Counted from the first letter of the stretch, positions 2,134-12,470 are shown. The stretch: 12,502 nucleotides of DNA from a virus (IMGVR_UViG_2541047430_000021); one strand, 5' to 3'. The notes: a model not told the origin generated them from the letters alone. Numbers and translations: made by a program.

Positions 2134-2289
2134 TTACTCCTCAGGTTCGTAAGCTGTGAAGACAGCGACCTCCGTCTGGCCGGTTCGGATTCGTACCTCG
2201 CAGAGGTCTTTCCTCGTTACCAGTGCCGTCACTATGACGGTAATACAGATGACGATCAGGGCGATTAACATCGCCTTTTGCTGCTTCAT
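2134..2289 (-). CDS. hok: Hok-family type I toxin (51 aa membrane peptide)
   Basis: Translation MKQQKAMLIALIVICITVIVTALVTRKDLCEVRIRTGQTEVAVFTAYEPEE is near-identical to HokD/RelF as I recall it. AGGAG SD 9 nt upstream of ATG at 2289-2287. An in-frame upstream ATG at 2346 with its own GAGG SD could be a mok-like start. Confidence 0.9.
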   Translation of the reverse strand: MKQQKAMLIALIVICITVIVTALVTRKDLCEVRIRTGQTEVAVFTAYEPEE

Positions 2290-2338
2290 AGCCTGCTTCT
2301 CCTTGCCTTTCGGCGCGTAAGAGGCTAACCTACATGTG

Positions 2339-2410
2339 TCTAGCATGAAATTGGCCTCAGATTAATGTTAGGCGTCTTGCAGGACGCGTAATGTTAACTG
2401 GGGCTTTTCT
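2339..2410 (+). ncRNA. putative Sok-like antisense RNA (hypothesis)
   Basis: Plus-strand region antisense to the SD and ATG at 2346-2362. Candidate promoter TTGCCT(2304-2309)-17 nt-TAACCT(2327-2332). Hairpins at 2372-2387 (GCGTC-TTGCAG-GACGC) and CCUCAG...CUGGGG, followed by a U-rich tail CUUUUCUCU. Boundaries are inferred, not measured. Confidence 0.3.
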
Positions 2411-2464
2411 CTGTCTGCCTTACGGTGGCATGCCCGAGGCAGACAGCCTCAAGCACCCGCAGCA

Positions 2465-6333: not shown

Positions 6334-6759
6334 TTAGTGCATCACCACAGCATTCCCTGCCGGGCCGCCGCGATTCATCTGGTCATACAAAACAACCGCT
6401 GACGCAACAAAATCATCGACATCCTTCACCAGCCGATCCCTCCGTTCGACGATCTCACGGTAATATTCAGAACTGTGGCTGCGCATACGGGCCACCAGCA
6501 AAGGCGGCATCGCCTTTTCGATCGCCGGTAACAGAGCCTGCATTTTTTCAACAGCATCAGGGGTGTCTTTATCCAGCCAACGGAAAATTTTCTGGGTATT
6601 ACGGGCCAGGGCTTCCGGATGGCTGTCGTCATACAGTTCCGGGAACGTCATTCCCAGCTCGAAATACGCTTTGGTAATTTTCGCAGCCGGTACTTTTTCG
6701 CCGTCCGGATGCGCCCAGACATTCATCGCCATGCGGATGTGTTCATGCTTGATTTTCAT
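6334..6759 (-). CDS. YdaT-like (CII-like) prophage regulator
   Basis: Begins MKIKHEHI..., as I recall Rac YdaT does; 141 aa. ATG at 6759 overlaps the upstream stop (ATGA); GGAG SD. Confidence 0.75.
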   Translation of the reverse strand: MKIKHEHIRMAMNVWAHPDGEKVPAAKITKAYFELGMTFPELYDDSHPEALARNTQKIFRWLDKDTPDAVEKMQALLPAIEKAMPPLLVARMRSHSSEYYREIVERRDRLVKDVDDFVASAVVLYDQMNRGGPAGNAVVMH

Positions 6760-7058
6760 GAATCAACTCCATCAGATAAGCATGCACTACAATCACCTTC
6801 AGCATGAACTACATGTGTTTGCCCCAAACGAATGCCGCTCGCATACTCAGGCCAAATAAGCTCCCAATCATGGGGTCGTAGCTCCGCCCTACTTACTTGG
6901 CCTTCCGTCGCAGATTCGATCATAAGGGCGCGGGTTGGAGATATAGCTGTTCGTCCAGACGCCATTTGCGATAAGTAAGATGGCGATACACCAAGTCTGG
7001 CCGCGAATTTCTTAGCATCACCAACCCTTAATGATTTAATAAACTCTTTTAATGTCAT
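6756..7058 (-). CDS. Cro-like HTH protein (YdaS-like), first gene of the early-right operon
   Basis: Translation MTLKEFIKSLRVGDAKKFAARLGVSPSYLSQMASGRTAIS... is a Cro/CI-type HTH. GAGGAAGG SD before ATG at 7058. Divergent from the regulator gene. Confidence 0.8.
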   Translation of the reverse strand: MTLKEFIKSLRVGDAKKFAARLGVSPSYLSQMASGRTAISPTRALMIESATEGQVSRAELRPHDWELIWPEYASGIRLGQTHVVHAEGDCSACLSDGVDS

Positions 7059-7064
7059 ACCTTC

Positions 7065-7150
7065 CTCGGTTTAGTGTTTTTTTGCGAGTTTAGTGTTTAA
7101 TAAACCATTAAGTCAAGTATTTGCTTGTTTAGTGATTACTAAAGATAATT
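7065..7150. promoter_or_regulatory. OR-like divergent promoter/operator region
   Basis: Minus-strand promoter: -35 TTGACT (plus 7111-7116), -10 TAAACT (about 7087-7092). Plus-strand promoter: -35 TTGCTT (7121-7126), 17 nt, -10 GATAAT (7144-7149). GTTTAGTG motifs at 7069, 7088 and 7127; near-palindromes GTTTAATAAAC (7094-7104) and TTTAGTGATTACTAAA (7128-7143). Confidence 0.5.
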
Positions 7151-7155
7151 ACCAC

Positions 7156-7527
7156 ATGCAAAAAAAAGAAATTCGCCGTTTACGTCTCAAGGAGTGGTTT
7201 AAAGATAAAACTCTGCCACCCAAAGAGAAGAGCTACCTATCTCAACTAATGAGTGGGAGAGCCTCGTTTGGAGAAAAGGCTGCCAGAAGAATAGAGCAAA
7301 CATACGGGATGCCGGAAGGGTATCTGGATGCGGAATACGCAGAACAACCGGGGGGTTCTCCACCACATGCAGGGTTAACGTCTAATCAACTGGAATTATT
7401 GCAGATTTTTTCAGCCTTCCCTGAGGATGAGCAACGCCAGATAATCAGCGAGTTAAAGCAGAAAAAAGAATCAATGGAAGATCTCATAGCGAGATGGATT
7501 GCGGCGCAAAAATGCCGCCGCGCCTGA
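7156..7527 (+). CDS. CI-position HTH regulator (PaaR2-like), probably leaderless
   Basis: ATG at 7156 lies ~7 nt after the GATAAT -10 and has no SD. HTH-like segment KSYLSQLMSGRASFGEKAARRIEQTYGMPEGYLD. The ORF-track start at 7093 is a GTG inside the operator region. Confidence 0.65.
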   Translation: MQKKEIRRLRLKEWFKDKTLPPKEKSYLSQLMSGRASFGEKAARRIEQTYGMPEGYLDAEYAEQPGGSPPHAGLTSNQLELLQIFSAFPEDEQRQIISELKQKKESMEDLIARWIAAQKCRRA

Positions 7528-7547
7528 GTTATAAAACCGGAGGAAAC

Positions 7548-7739
7548 ATGAATAGAGCCCTTTCACCAATGGTTTCTGAATTTGAAACCATTGAACAAGA
7601 AAACAGTTACAACGAATGGCTGCGTGCGAAAGTAGCAACGAGCCTTGCAGATCCGCGCCCAGCAATTCCCCATGACGAAGTTGAGCGCAGAATGGCAGAA
7701 CGCTTTGCTAAGATGCGCAAGGAACGGAGCAAGCAGTAA
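7548..7739 (+). CDS. paaA2: ParE-associated antitoxin (PaaA2-like, 63 aa)
   Basis: GGAGG SD 5 nt before ATG 7548; 63-aa product directly upstream of the ParE toxin gene (1-nt gap). Length and arrangement match my recollection of the three-component paaR2-paaA2-parE2 system; the symbol is assigned from memory. Confidence 0.7.
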   Translation: MNRALSPMVSEFETIEQENSYNEWLRAKVATSLADPRPAIPHDEVERRMAERFAKMRKERSKQ

Positions 7740-7740
7740 A

Positions 7741-8019
7741 ATGTTACCCGTGTTATGGCTTGAAAGCGCAGATACCGACCTAGATGATATAACTAGTTAT
7801 ATTGCTCGTTTCGACATAGATGCGGCTGAACGCTTATGGCAGCGATTAAGGGGTTGTGTGCTGCCGTTATCCGAACATCCGTATTTATACCCACCAAGCG
7901 ACAGAGTACCTGGCTTGCGTGAGATTGTAGCCCACCCTAACTATATAATTCTATACCGCGTAACAACATCAAGCGTTGAAGTAGTAAACGTGATCCACGC
8001 AAGACGCCAGTTTCCCTAA
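7741..8019 (+). CDS. parE2: ParE/RelE-superfamily toxin (92 aa)
   Basis: Translation MLPVLWLESADTDLDDITSYIARFDIDAAERLWQRLRGCVLPLSEHPYLYPPSDRVPGLREIVAHPNYIILYRVTTSSVEVVNVIHARRQFP shows the ParE/RelE pattern (PG-RE-V--P-YIILYRV----V-V--V-HARR). Confidence 0.85.
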   Translation: MLPVLWLESADTDLDDITSYIARFDIDAAERLWQRLRGCVLPLSEHPYLYPPSDRVPGLREIVAHPNYIILYRVTTSSVEVVNVIHARRQFP

Positions 8020-8043: not shown

Positions 8044-8101
8044 CAACCGCAACGACTTTATCAAAAGCGTTGTGTTTGTTATGTCCCGCGGTTTAGTTTT
8101 T
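8044..8101 (+). terminator. possible terminator of the regulator-TA operon (tIMM-like), weak
   Basis: Imperfect 13-bp stem AACAACCGCAACG / CGTTGTGTTTGTT (one mismatch, one G-U) with a 13-nt loop, followed by the T-rich GTTTAGTTTTTA. Confidence 0.3.
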
Positions 8102-8135
8102 ACTTGACTTAAGTTTAATGTTTATTAAACTAAAA
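8085..8135 (+). promoter_or_regulatory. OL/PL-like promoter-operator for the plus-strand early-left operon
   Basis: -35 TTGACT (8104-8109), 16 nt, -10 TAAACT (8126-8131). Palindrome GTTTATTAAAC (8120-8130) and GTTTAGT/GTTTAATG motifs (8090, 8113) echo those in the OR-like region. Confidence 0.45.
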
Positions 8136-8961: not shown

Positions 8962-9317
8962 TAGCTAACCAACGAAGCTAAGGTTGGTAATTAAGGAGTT
9001 CTCCACGGGTGAGGTGGAGTGCGTGCGCCGGACACGGGTGAGCATACGGCACTGACAGTTTACTGAAAGGATATTTCCCTGAAAAGTCAGACCATAACGC
9101 GAAAGCGCACGGCGAGGTAGCTGGTTCATAGATAGCCTGTCGTTAAATTTTCGTCGACCGTGCGCTTCCGGTTGTGGCAATCCGCGAAATGGCGCGGCGG
9201 TAAGTATGGAGGGGTTATTCCTTCCCCCGTTGAGGACACCGGGTTGTCAGGTTGACCATACGCTTAAGTGACAACCCCGCTGCAACGCCCTCTGTTATCA
9301 ATTTTCTGGTGACGTTT

Positions 9318-9360
9318 GGCGGTATCAGTTTTACTCCGTGACTGCTCTGCCGCCCTTTTT
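9318..9360 (+). terminator. terminator-like hairpin plus T5 run (tL-like), weak
   Basis: GGCGG (9318-9322) ... CCGCC (9350-9354) with inner CAG/CTG pairing, followed by TTTTT (9356-9360). The loop is long, so efficiency is uncertain. Confidence 0.3.
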
Positions 9361-9998: not shown

Positions 9999-12470
9999 AT
10001 GAGTAAAGTCTTTATTTGCGCCGCCATTCCGGACGAACAGGCAATAAAGGAAGAAGGTGCCGTCGCTGTAGCCACTGCCATTGAAGCCGGTGATGAACGT
10101 CGCGCCCGCGCAAAATTTCACTGGCAATTCCTGGAACATTATCCGGCTGCTCAGGACTGCGCTTATAAATTTCTTGTTTGCGAGGATAAACCCGGTATAC
10201 CCCGCCCTGCCCTCGATTCCTGGGATGCTGAATATATGCAGGAAAACCGCTGGGATGAGGCGTCTGCTTCCTTTGTCCCGGTCGAGACTGAATCCGATCC
10301 GATGAACGTCACTTTTGACAACCTGGCCCCTGAAGTACAGAACGCTGTCATGGTTAAGTTCGACACATGTGAAAACATCACTGTTGATATGGTGATTAGC
10401 GCACAGGAATTGTTGCAGGAAGACATGGCAACATTCGACGGCCATATCGTTGAAGCGTTGATGAAAATGCCAGAAGTTAACGCTATGTATCCGGAGCTTA
10501 AGCTGCATGCCATCGGGTGGGTTAAGCATAAATGTAAGCCTGGTGCCAAATGGCCCGAAATTCAGGCAGAGATGCGCATCTGGAAAAAACGTCGCGAAGG
10601 TGAACGCAAGGAAGCCGGAAAATACACGTCTGTTGTTGATCTCGCCCGCGCCAGAGCCAATCAACAGCACACTGAAAATTCAACAGGAAAAATCAACCCG
10701 GTCATTGCTGCCATTCATCGCGAATACAAGCAGACATGGAAAACACTGGATGACGAACTGGCCTACGCTCTCTGGCCTGGTGATGTGGATGCCGGAAACA
10801 TTGACGGCAGCATCCATCGCTGGGCAAAAAATGAAGTTATCGACAACGGCCGCGAAGACTGGAAGCGTATCTCGGCATCAATGCGCAAACAGCCTGATGC
10901 CCTTCGCTACGACCGCCAGACTATTTTTGGCCTTGTCCGTGAACGTCCGATCGACATTCACAAAGACCCTGTGGCACTGAACAAATACATTACTGAATAC
11001 CTGACTACAAAGGGCGTGTTTGAAGATGAAGGAACAAATCAGAGCGCAACTGACACTCTCTCGTCGCCAGTACCAGAAACTGATGCAGTGGAAACGGCAA
11101 TTCCGGACAACGAAAAAACCGAATGCAAAGTGGAAGTCGAACCATCTGTAGAGCGTGAGGGGCCGTTCTACTTCCTCTTCACCGACAAGGATGGCGAAAA
11201 ATACGGTCGCGCAAACAAACTTTCTGGTCTGGATAAGGCGCTGGCTGCCGGGGCTACTGAAATCACAAAAGAAGAATATTTTGCCCGAAAAAATGGCACA
11301 TACACAGGCTTACCGCAAAATGCAAATACCGCACAAAATTCTGAACAACCAGAACCGGTAAAAGTTACCGCTGACGAAGTAAAGAAAATTATGCAGGCAG
11401 CCAATATCAGCCAGCCTGACGCCGAGGAACTGCTTGCAGTATCACGTGGTGAATTTGTTGAAGGGATTAGCGACCCGAATGATCCGAAATGGGTTAAGGG
11501 GATCCAGACCCGCGATTCTGTGAACCAGAACCAGCAAGAAACGGAACAGAACGACCAGAAAGCGGAACAAAACAGCCCAAATACGCAACAAAACGAGCCA
11601 GAAACGAAACAACCTGAACCAGTAGTGCAACAGGAACCGGAAAAGATCTGCACCGCCTGCGGTCAGAGCGGTGGCGGCAACTGCCCTGATTGTGGTGCGG
11701 TGATGGGTGACGCAACATACCAGGAAATATTCGATGGAGAGAATCAGCCTGAAGTTCAGGAAAATGATCCGGAGGAAATGGAAGGTACTGCACATCAGCA
11801 CAAGGAGAACACTGGCGGCAATCAGCATCATGCCAGCGATAGTGAAACTGGCGAGGCGTCAGATCCCTTAATTAAGGCGAACGGTCATCATAATCTCACA
11901 TCCACCAGCAGAGCGGGGATTCATCTGATGATCGATCTTGAAACCATGGGAAAAAATCCCGATGCCCCGATTATCTCAATAGGTGCAATATTTTTCGATC
12001 CGCAAACCGGAGATATGGGACCGGAATTTAGTAAGACTATCGATCTGGATACTGCTGGCGGAGTCATTGATCGGGACACCATGAAATGGTGGCTTAAACA
12101 ATCACGCGAAGCGCAATCTGCCATTATGACCGATGAAATCCCGTTAGATGATGCACTGTTACAATTGCGGGAATTTATCGACGAAAACTCCGGTGAATTT
12201 TTTGTTCATGTCTGGGGAAATGGAGCCAACTTCGACAACACGATTTTGCGCCGTTCATACGAACGGCAGGGGAGCCCCTGCCCGTGGCGTTACTACAACG
12301 ATCGCGATGTACGCACAATCGTTGAGCTGGGGAAAGCCATAGACTTCGATGCCAGAACGGCTATTCCATTCGAAGGTGAGCGCCATAATGCACTTGATGA
12401 CGCCCGTTACCAGGCAAAATACGTTTCAGCTATCTGGCAAAAACTGATCCCGAGTCAGGCTGATTTTTAA
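9999..12470 (+). CDS. prophage exonuclease (RecE position) with C-terminal DEDDh/DnaQ-like 3'-5' exonuclease domain
   Basis: 823-aa ORF with GAGG SD. C-terminus has the three DEDDh motifs: IDLETMG, VWGNGANFDNTIL, HNALDDARYQAKY. Internal CTACGQSGGGNCPDCG zinc-ribbon-like motif and a Q/E/N-rich low-complexity linker. Confidence 0.85.
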   Translation: MSKVFICAAIPDEQAIKEEGAVAVATAIEAGDERRARAKFHWQFLEHYPAAQDCAYKFLVCEDKPGIPRPALDSWDAEYMQENRWDEASASFVPVETESDPMNVTFDNLAPEVQNAVMVKFDTCENITVDMVISAQELLQEDMATFDGHIVEALMKMPEVNAMYPELKLHAIGWVKHKCKPGAKWPEIQAEMRIWKKRREGERKEAGKYTSVVDLARARANQQHTENSTGKINPVIAAIHREYKQTWKTLDDELAYALWPGDVDAGNIDGSIHRWAKNEVIDNGREDWKRISASMRKQPDALRYDRQTIFGLVRERPIDIHKDPVALNKYITEYLTTKGVFEDEGTNQSATDTLSSPVPETDAVETAIPDNEKTECKVEVEPSVEREGPFYFLFTDKDGEKYGRANKLSGLDKALAAGATEITKEEYFARKNGTYTGLPQNANTAQNSEQPEPVKVTADEVKKIMQAANISQPDAEELLAVSRGEFVEGISDPNDPKWVKGIQTRDSVNQNQQETEQNDQKAEQNSPNTQQNEPETKQPEPVVQQEPEKICTACGQSGGGNCPDCGAVMGDATYQEIFDGENQPEVQENDPEEMEGTAHQHKENTGGNQHHASDSETGEASDPLIKANGHHNLTSTSRAGIHLMIDLETMGKNPDAPIISIGAIFFDPQTGDMGPEFSKTIDLDTAGGVIDRDTMKWWLKQSREAQSAIMTDEIPLDDALLQLREFIDENSGEFFVHVWGNGANFDNTILRRSYERQGSPCPWRYYNDRDVRTIVELGKAIDFDARTAIPFEGERHNALDDARYQAKYVSAIWQKLIPSQADF

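Follow-up and report, generated by a model that had tools for sequence, protein, structure and literature searches.

[quoted passage not shown] Taking identity and mechanism as a whole, it is almost certainly the OR-type control region of that prophage, working as a bistable switch, and no evidence contradicting this explanation was found. The switch, its leaderless paaR2 mRNA and its operators are already known, having been published in 2021 (Jurenas et al. 2021, mBio, PMC8630535). New here is the recurrence of the control cassette, as recognised by sequence comparison, in prophages of Gamma- and Betaproteobacteria.

The control region of CP-933P

The window, which is the whole 12,502-nucleotide stretch of DNA that was analysed, matches E. 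coli O157:H7 chromosomes at 99.9% identity over 12.49 kb, and the 901 bp around the site (6700-7600) are 100% identical to many of them. The plus strand carries paaR2, paaA2 and parE2 in that order and the minus strand ydaS and ydaT (Table 1). According to RefSeq and Pfam, the neighbours are a Q antiterminator, RusA and hokD, then an O-like HTH protein and a DnaC-like ATPase (replication); ydfC, dicB and an exonuclease lie past the PaaA2/ParE genes. The exonuclease ORF is intact in the window (823 aa, 9999-12470) and is the site of an IS element in some O157 strains, which has no bearing on the switch.

The published CP-933P switch and the window agree in the 97-bp intergenic region, the MQKKE N-terminus, the flanking genes, the repeats of the GTTTAGT type, PL933P with OL past parE2 and the YdaT operator, and they differ in nothing of substance. 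Within E. coli the locus is near-clonal, with at least 99% identity over 6990-7230 in 580 of 613 genomes. Distant homologues were used for comparison because this variation is too slight. The control region of phage Evi carries one substitution, T7081C, which lies outside all elements, and its paaR2 has a synonymous change in codon 2.

Table 1. Genes, promoter elements and operators of the control region (positions counted from the first base of the window)
Feature	Position	Strand	Basis or remark
ydaT, lambda CII analogue	6334-6759	-	Pfam YdaT_toxin, 2.8e-10; RefSeq 'toxin YdaT family protein'
YdaT operator OM, TTGATTTTCATGAATCAA	6749-6766		ydaS/ydaT junction, PRE933P region
ydaS, Cro analogue, 100 aa, HTH	6756-7058	-	Pfam YdaS_toxin, 3.3e-12; HTH_3, 6e-7
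Shine-Dalgarno sequence GGAAGG of ydaS	7060-7065	-	Read from sequence: ccttcc one base from the ATG
IR4, left half GTTTAGTGT perfect, right half degenerate	7069-7086		In the ydaS 5' untranslated region
PR933P -10, TAAACT	7087-7092	-	Promoter scan; PL has the same hexamer
IR3, GTTTAGTGTTTAATAAAC, 18-bp palindromic operator	7088-7105		One mismatch to GTTTAGT-N4-ACTAAAC
IR2, degenerate (ATTAAGT, 5/7)	7107-7124		Coincides with both -35 hexamers; placement approximate
PR933P -35, TTGACT (plus-strand AGTCAA)	7111-7116	-	Promoter scan
PRM933P -35, TTGCTT	7121-7126	+	Read from sequence
IR1, GTTTAGTGATTACTAAAG, 18-bp palindromic operator	7127-7144		One mismatch to GTTTAGT-N4-ACTAAAC
PRM933P -10, GATAAT	7144-7149	+	Read from sequence
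paaR2, CI analogue, 123 aa	7156-7527	+	Translation begins MQKKE; full start MQKKEIRRLRLKEW
paaA2, antitoxin	7548-7739	+	Pfam PaaA2, 1.7e-19; coordinates from RefSeq CDS
parE2, toxin	7741-8019	+	Pfam ParE_toxin, 4.8e-16; RefSeq CDS
PL933P and OL operators	8091-8135	+	Inverted repeats at 8091-8108 and 8113-8130

Two divergent promoters with adjoining -35 elements

Two sigma-70 promoters fire in opposite directions from -35 hexamers 4 bp apart. PR933P was recovered by the promoter scan as TTGACT, 18 nt and TAAACT, directed toward ydaS and scoring 9/12; the assignment of its hexamers rests on the scan together with the published statement that the PL and PR hexamers are identical (PMC8630535). PRM933P has a spacer of exactly 17 nt (7127-7143) and scores 8/12, with just 3/6 in the -35 element, which leaves it under the scan threshold; this score fits a weak, activator-dependent promoter. 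Both promoters had been predicted, both starts have been mapped by 5' RACE and PR is the stronger of the two (Jurenas et al. 2021, mBio, PMC8630535). The divergent promoters proposed in the initial annotation are therefore found where it had placed them, PR933P by the scan and PRM933P by reading of the sequence. Its distance of 5 bp between the -35 elements is the start-to-end difference, but the actual gap is four bases (7117-7120).

Transcription from PR933P gives a ydaS-ydaT mRNA with a short leader and a normal Shine-Dalgarno sequence. The ATG of ydaS is read as CAT at 7056-7058, and ydaS is thus a leadered Cro-like gene. The hexamers of PR recur in PL933P (TTGACT at 8104-8109, a 16-nt spacer and TAAACT at 8126-8131), a promoter described past parE2 with three operators (PMC8630535). 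At the other end of the locus, TTGATTTTCATGAATCAA is an exact match to the published YdaT operator TTGATT-N6-AATCAA (PMC9986795), and YdaT activates PRE933P at this junction (PMC8630535). A transcript from PRE933P, the start of which is predicted near 6800, would bring paaR2 a leader of about 360 nt that has no Shine-Dalgarno sequence.

The paaR2 mRNA is leaderless

Transcription of paaR2 starts at the A at 7156, which also opens its start codon. Six bases (TACCAC, 7150-7155) separate the -10 element GATAAT from the ATG, so that this A is the seventh base after the -10, in keeping with the distance of about 7 nt given in the initial annotation. No GGAG, GAGG or AGGA is present in the 18 nt upstream of the ATG, which bears out the claim that the start codon has no Shine-Dalgarno sequence. 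The 5' RACE start of PRM933P coincides with the predicted translation start of paaR2, and the protein expressed from a leaderless construct has the N-terminus MQKKE by Edman sequencing and an intact mass of 15,081 Da, which confirms translation from this ATG (PMC8630535). The likeness to lambda cI transcribed from PRM, on which the claim of a leaderless transcript had been modelled, is borne out by these data, and the geometry in 67 loci (see below) agrees independently.

The first 22 nt of the paaR2 mRNA are predicted to be unpaired in both the MFE and the centroid fold, and the overall fold is unremarkable (z = -1.1). A predicted unpaired, A-rich 5' end of this kind fits recognition of a 5'-terminal AUG by ribosomes. 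Lacking a leader, the paaR2-paaA2-parE2 mRNA requires ribosomes to load on that AUG. A 9-nt inverted repeat formed by TTTTTTTGC (7077-7085) and GCAAAAAAA (7158-7166) was considered as a structure and rejected: its arms are homopolymer runs, no PRM or PR transcript holds both of them, and the folding of the paaR2 5' end is ordinary.

The reading that paaR2 is instead leadered, translated from an in-frame GTG at 7093 on a transcript initiated upstream into a protein of 144 aa in which the ATG at 7156 is an internal methionine, is very improbable. A mechanical ORF does span 7093-7527 from this GTG, and the long form is frequent in automated public calls (P0001, 144 aa, with 231 member sequences; P0002, 150 aa). 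Published protein sequencing refutes the GTG as the start, together with the matching intact mass and the 5' RACE start at the ATG (PMC8630535). The 123-aa form is also the one in RefSeq, and homologues from many genera start within two residues of the paaR2 methionine. The 21 extra codons are promoter and operator DNA, in which conservation tracks the hexamers and half-sites and not the codons.

The Pfam scan of PaaR2 returned no family match. Its N-terminal domain matches PDB 7nkv at 5e-41 in a search of PDB sequences, and the structures of this domain (7nkv, 8c3k and 8c3l) are deposited as 'Phage repressor protein CI'. An S24 autopeptidase domain is absent by Pfam and by alignment with relatives, and neither a peptidase motif nor a response to mitomycin C was found for the protein (PMC8630535). 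For these reasons PaaR2, which acts like CI, is placed outside the S24 repressor family, whereas relatives that share its N-terminal domain are inside it.

Operator repeats within the 97 bp

Exact copies of GTTTAGTG start at 7069, 7088 and 7127 and nowhere else in the 12.5-kb window, and the near-palindrome TTTAGTGATTACTAAA occupies 7128-7143 as part of the 18-bp inverted repeat GTTTAGTGATTACTAAAG; the three copies and the near-palindrome are as first noted. A longer unit, GTTTAGTGTTT or GTTTAGTGATT, recurs at the same three positions, and a 24-nt unit is repeated at 7081 and 7120 with 83% identity. The initial annotation had put these repeats in the promoter spacers. This is right for the third copy and its palindrome, since IR1 takes up the whole PRM spacer (7127-7143) and shares its final base with the start of the -10, but not for the other two. 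In copy 2 (7088-7095) the overlap is with the PR -10, and its palindromic partner (7099-7105) falls within the spacer of PR; copy 1 (7069-7076) belongs to the 5' untranslated region of ydaS, downstream of the PR -10. A second palindrome, GTTTAGTGTTTAATAAAC, a degenerate site near 7107 and the reappearance of the motif at 8091-8135 had gone unnoticed.

The repeat starts at 7069, 7088, about 7107 and 7127 are spaced by 19, 19 and 20 bp (about 19.5 bp), matching the published description of four equally spaced 18-bp inverted repeats with the half-site consensus GTTTAGTAA (PMC8630535). In that description IR1 lies on PRM and IR3 on PR, one half each of IR2 and IR4 is degenerate, and overlapping pseudo-symmetric operators form a second class of repeats (PMC8630535). 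In the window, IR3 overlaps the PR -10 and spacer and falls inside the published footprints (PMC8630535). Among the papers listed by a full-text search for the motif strings GTTTAGTAA, GTTTAGTG and ACTAATCAAAAT, all matches were unrelated and of primer type, and the 'PAAR2' of a BMC Genomics 2026 paper is unrelated, belonging to a type VI secretion cluster.

A chance or compositional origin of the repeats, in AT-rich intergenic DNA and with no regulatory role, has next to no likelihood. The region is indeed AT-rich, and the 8-mer with one mismatch allowed is not enriched across the window (12 against 8.65 expected). Its exact form is found 3 times against 0.27 expected, a count reached in 1 of 200 shuffles, and all three copies lie inside 66 bp. 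The palindrome GTTTAGT-N4-ACTAAAC with up to three mismatches has four matches against 0.37 expected, at 7088, 7127, 8091 and 8113 only, and is thus confined to OR and OL. Half-sites matching at 6/7 positions or better number six in the 97-bp region, five at 8091-8135 and about 26 across the other 12.3 kb. Conservation of the repeats reaches from Escherichia to Burkholderia and Nitrosomonas, and the published footprints and repression assays refute the chance explanation (PMC8630535).

Protein binding and the switch

The repeats are operators for the repressor and the Cro-like protein, as the initial annotation had supposed. DNase I footprinting and EMSA have both been done on the PaaR2-YdaS control region; in the footprints PaaR2 protects about 78 bp and YdaS 27 and 32 bp of the 97-bp region, and both proteins overlap both promoters (PMC8630535). 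In gfp fusions each protein represses both promoters; at low PaaR2, PRM is stimulated about 4-fold while PR is already repressed, and the locus is bistable in single cells (PMC8630535). The 5' RACE and footprinting that had been proposed as checks were thus already in print, with the results predicted. The proposed comparison across related prophages was carried out here, and the halves of IR1 and IR3 proved to be conserved among 25 non-redundant loci.

PaaR2 and YdaS bind overlapping sites across both promoters, with mutual repression (PMC8630535), and compete for operators built of GTTTAGT half-sites. Low PaaR2 shuts PR and the distant PL and stimulates PRM, high PaaR2 shuts PRM as well, and YdaS favours the PRM side. 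Both proteins would bind the 18-bp inverted repeats as dimers, and the repeat that each of them fills first is inferred. Occupancy of IR3 would cover the PR -10 and block PR, that of IR1 would fill the PRM spacer and block PRM, and PaaR2 bound near the pair of -35 elements may activate PRM in the manner of lambda CI at OR2.

The model of dimers on inverted repeats is not settled, because a second class of pseudo-symmetric repeats has been noted (PMC8630535). The units could alternatively be direct repeats (GTTTAGTGTTT, or the 24-nt TTTGC..GTTTAGTG..A.TAAA) bound head-to-tail by octameric PaaR2, an arrangement that would leave the switch unchanged and give it a protein-DNA geometry unlike that of lambda. 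There are three perfect direct copies of GTTTAGTG(T/A)TT, the two copies of the 24-nt direct repeat are spaced by 39 bp, and IR2 and IR4 are without a second half-site. PaaR2 is moreover reported to form octamers and protects one continuous stretch of DNA, and the authors say that both repeat types may be used (PMC8630535).

Among relatives, however, both halves of IR1 (GTTTAG...TACTAAT) and of IR3 (AGTTTA...ACTAAAC) are kept, including halves that lie in promoter spacers and are free of promoter constraint, and for the third direct copy (IR4) there is no conservation of position. HTH repressors of the PaaR2 class are normally dimers on two-fold symmetric sites, as are CI and Cro of lambda and 434. 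Since the spacer-located right half of IR3 and halves of IR1 are conserved, the alignment favours recognition of palindromes, and the direct-repeat geometry appears unlikely, though by a lesser measure than the alternatives discussed above.

The cassette in relatives of PaaR2

The protein search returned two kinds of relatives, namely PaaR2-like proteins of about 120-130 aa and repressors with an S24 peptidase domain, about 210 aa long, in which the N-terminal domain is 56-83% identical to that of PaaR2. Sixty-four genomic loci were retrieved, of which 63 were usable for geometry; with three from annotated collections, the total is 67 including the window. In 41 of the 67, a -10-like hexamer ends 5-7 nt (usually 6) before the ATG, with no Shine-Dalgarno sequence, and a TTGCTT-type -35 lies 16-18 nt (usually 17) before the -10. 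The start codon is ATG in 41/41. Among the background ATGs of these loci, taken at the head of ORFs of 60 codons or more, 9.7% show the same geometry. The leaderless assignments in relatives are read from sequence, and the loci are homologous, so that the counts are not independent events.

When 25 non-redundant loci were aligned on the ATG, the consensus was GTCAAGtaTTTGCTTGTTTAg..atTACTAATCAaAaT, then 6 nt, then ATG. Per position, the information content is 1.83 bits for the -35, 1.29 for the spacer with IR1 and 1.52 for the -10, and it falls to 0.19 in the gap between the -10 and the ATG, the length of which is fixed at 6 nt. Selection on the spacing between the -10 and the AUG would be expected to leave such a pattern, a fixed-length gap of low information. 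Relatives hardly vary in the GTCAAG of the PR -35 (about 1.66 bits per position), and the AGTTTA of the PR -10 is conserved; the hexamer aligned to the PRM -10 is CAAAAT, CACAAT or CAAACT. The order of the cassette is the reverse complement of the PR -35, 3-4 nt, TTGCTT, a 17-nt spacer with the GTTTAG..TACTAA(T/A) palindrome, the -10, 6 nt and the ATG.

Short repressors (118-140 aa) and long ones (206-252 aa) alike occur with the leaderless geometry. Pfam identified the S24 domain in seven of seven long repressors, five with leaderless geometry and two leadered. Hosts of the cassette include Escherichia, Klebsiella, Yersinia, Proteus, Erwinia, Pantoea and Arsenophonus, and also Burkholderia, Caballeronia, Pandoraea, Massilia, Nitrosomonas and Dechloromonas. 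In Photorhabdus and Xenorhabdus the promoter and operator are kept and the leader is about 54 nt (85 nt in one locus); in Pasteurellaceae and Orbaceae the leader is 19-40 nt, with an AGGAG-type Shine-Dalgarno sequence in most. Geometry was ambiguous in seven loci of the 67. Relatives with predicted leaderless geometry include Yersinia aleksiciae 159, Proteus mirabilis ATCC 29906, Burkholderia phage vB_E177 and Klebsiella phage 5 LV-2017, and among the leadered ones are Gilliamella, Pasteurella canis and Photorhabdus luminescens.

We lean toward the view that the cassette is an old module that tracks the PaaR2-type N-terminal domain, whether this is joined to the PaaR2 tail or to S24, and that two lineages have turned leadered. 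Its range would cover prophages of Enterobacterales, Burkholderiales, Nitrosomonas and Dechloromonas. If this is true, the leadered lineages form a natural series on why repressor mRNAs from maintenance promoters stay leaderless.

Implications

The reading made from sequence alone matches, nearly to the base, an architecture that experiments have verified. About the switch itself there is little new; the family-wide leaderless cassette and the mis-annotations that go with it are a modest by-product. The gap of 6 nt is fixed while its sequence is free, in two proteobacterial classes and with two repressor architectures. This constancy of length amid varying sequence speaks for leaderless expression of the maintenance repressor having been selected and not accidental, and the leadered variants are natural comparators.

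The annotation of leaderless repressor genes goes wrong in a systematic way. The repressor gene is absent from the record of Klebsiella phage 5 LV-2017, that of Burkholderia phage vB_E177 is annotated so short that the whole DNA-binding domain is lost, and paaR2 is extended to the upstream GTG in many automated calls. The leaderless module would account for the frequent failure of gene callers to find these repressor genes or to give them in full. Such mis-annotation bears on predictions of lysogeny and immunity in phage genomics.

Comparison with known systems

Among the closest known systems are those with S24-type repressors, in Yersinia, Serratia, Proteus, Erwinia, Burkholderia phage vB_E177 and others, which have a PaaR2-like N-terminal domain, the same cassette and the 6-nt gap. 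They differ in their C-terminal autopeptidase, in place of which PaaR2 has a short helical oligomerisation tail. Because they carry this domain, the S24-type relatives are presumably SOS-inducible; a search for experimental studies of them found none.

RacR-YdaS/YdaT of the Rac prophage and DicA-DicC of Qin, both in E. coli K-12, are likewise control regions of cryptic lambdoid prophages in which a repressor gene diverges from a Cro-like one. YdaS and YdaT of Rac are in the same Pfam families as those of CP-933P, and identities of 26-31% have been reported for YdaS and YdaT (PMC8630535). The Rac and Qin repressors are proteins different from PaaR2, to which regulators of the DicA type give weak tblastn matches (27% identity).

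The CP-933P region resembles the OR region of lambda in that divergent promoters placed back to back share operators. In both, the maintenance promoter is weak and self-activated and its transcript starts at the AUG of the repressor, and the lytic promoter is strong and serves a leadered gene of the cro type. Both also have a further cluster of operators at PL, and an activator of the CII type that drives a PRE promoter inside the rightward operon. The proteins and operators of CP-933P, however, have no sequence similarity to those of lambda, and its Cro and CII analogues, YdaS and YdaT, belong to different folds. CP-933P has four repeats at a spacing of about 19.5 bp where lambda has three 17-bp operators, its repressor of 123 aa is without the S24 autopeptidase domain, and paaA2-parE2 occupy the position that rexA-rexB hold in lambda.

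Start-site annotation of paaR2 and its relatives

Many public automated gene calls take the in-frame GTG at 7093 as the start of paaR2, the CI analogue whose leaderless mRNA begins with the ATG at 7156. This form is represented by the 144-residue entry P0001, which comprises 231 member sequences, and a second entry of 150 residues, P0002, reaches beyond the GTG. Promoter and operator DNA (7093–7155) is thus translated in the extended calls; the correct 123-residue form is present in RefSeq. Two phage relatives with leaderless geometry illustrate further annotation losses. In Klebsiella phage 5 LV-2017 (KY271399.1; locus L002, positions 1501–1857), no CDS was deposited for the repressor gene, whose product is a PaaR2 homologue with 45% identity. 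The 220-residue S24 repressor gene of Burkholderia phage vB_E177 (PQ789817.1; locus L003, positions 1501–2163) has a deposited CDS that begins only at locus position 1768, and the entire DNA-binding domain is therefore lost.

The paaR2 start itself features a run of eight A residues (7159–7166) directly after ATGC. This run is broken in phage Evi (CAG AAA AAA). The equivalent run in Morganella psychrotolerans (locus L016, about 1185–1205) contains one extra A, so that the ATG, which follows CAAAAT at a distance of 6 nt, is not in frame; the additional base could be a sequencing error, mark a pseudogene or reflect slippage.

Leadered and diverged relatives

The same promoter and operator are kept in Photorhabdus and Xenorhabdus (L005–L012 and L020), where the repressor gene has a leader that measures 85 nt in L012 and about 54 nt in the other loci, and in Pasteurellaceae and Orbaceae (L035, L040, L043, L050, L052 and L058–L063), where the leader is 19–40 nt and in most cases carries an AGGAG-type Shine-Dalgarno sequence. 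Judged from their sequences, the loci of both groups appear to be natural examples of a switch between the leaderless and the leadered form. E. coli SCU-171 (L004, positions 1554–2866) harbors a diverged variant of the locus, with a repressor about 75% identical, an IR1 operator reading GTTTTGCAATTACTAAAG, and an additional HTH-domain gene that separates the paaR-like gene from the relB/parE pair.

Predicted placement of the YdaT-activated promoter PRE933P

The YdaT operator covers both the ydaS stop and the ydaT start. A good plus-strand -10 element, TACAAT, is located ∼22 nt downstream of the operator, and no recognisable -35 accompanies it. With this spacing, a transcript predicted to begin around 6800 would have the operator centred near -42, where class II activators typically bind. 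If a PRE933P transcript with this predicted start extends into paaR2, its leader would be about 360 nt long and, like the leaderless mRNA, it would have no Shine-Dalgarno sequence before the ATG; such a transcript is the supposed route of PaaR2 establishment.

Positions of regulatory and other prophage features in the window
Feature	Position	Strand	Remark
YdaT operator, TTGATTTTCATGAATCAA	6749–6766		Matches published site (PMC9986795)
TACAAT (-10)	6788–6793	+	
PL933P promoter, TTGACT-16-TAAACT	Within 8091–8135	+	Published PL933P/OL region (PMC8630535)
sok antisense RNA adjoining hokD	2284–2458	-	Rfam, 116.9 bits
DicF small RNA upstream of dicB	9304–9355	+	Rfam, 76.7 bits
RecE-like exonuclease ORF, 823 residues	9999–12470		Intact

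The sok and DicF RNAs are ordinary for such a prophage. The exonuclease gene is split by an IS3-family element in strain PV15-279 and annotated there as a pseudogene.

The second operator cluster

Five GTTTAGT-type half-sites form the second operator cluster, OL (8091–8135), which is separated from OR by about 1 kb. Such a distance is well suited to looping by an octameric repressor, as found in lambda.
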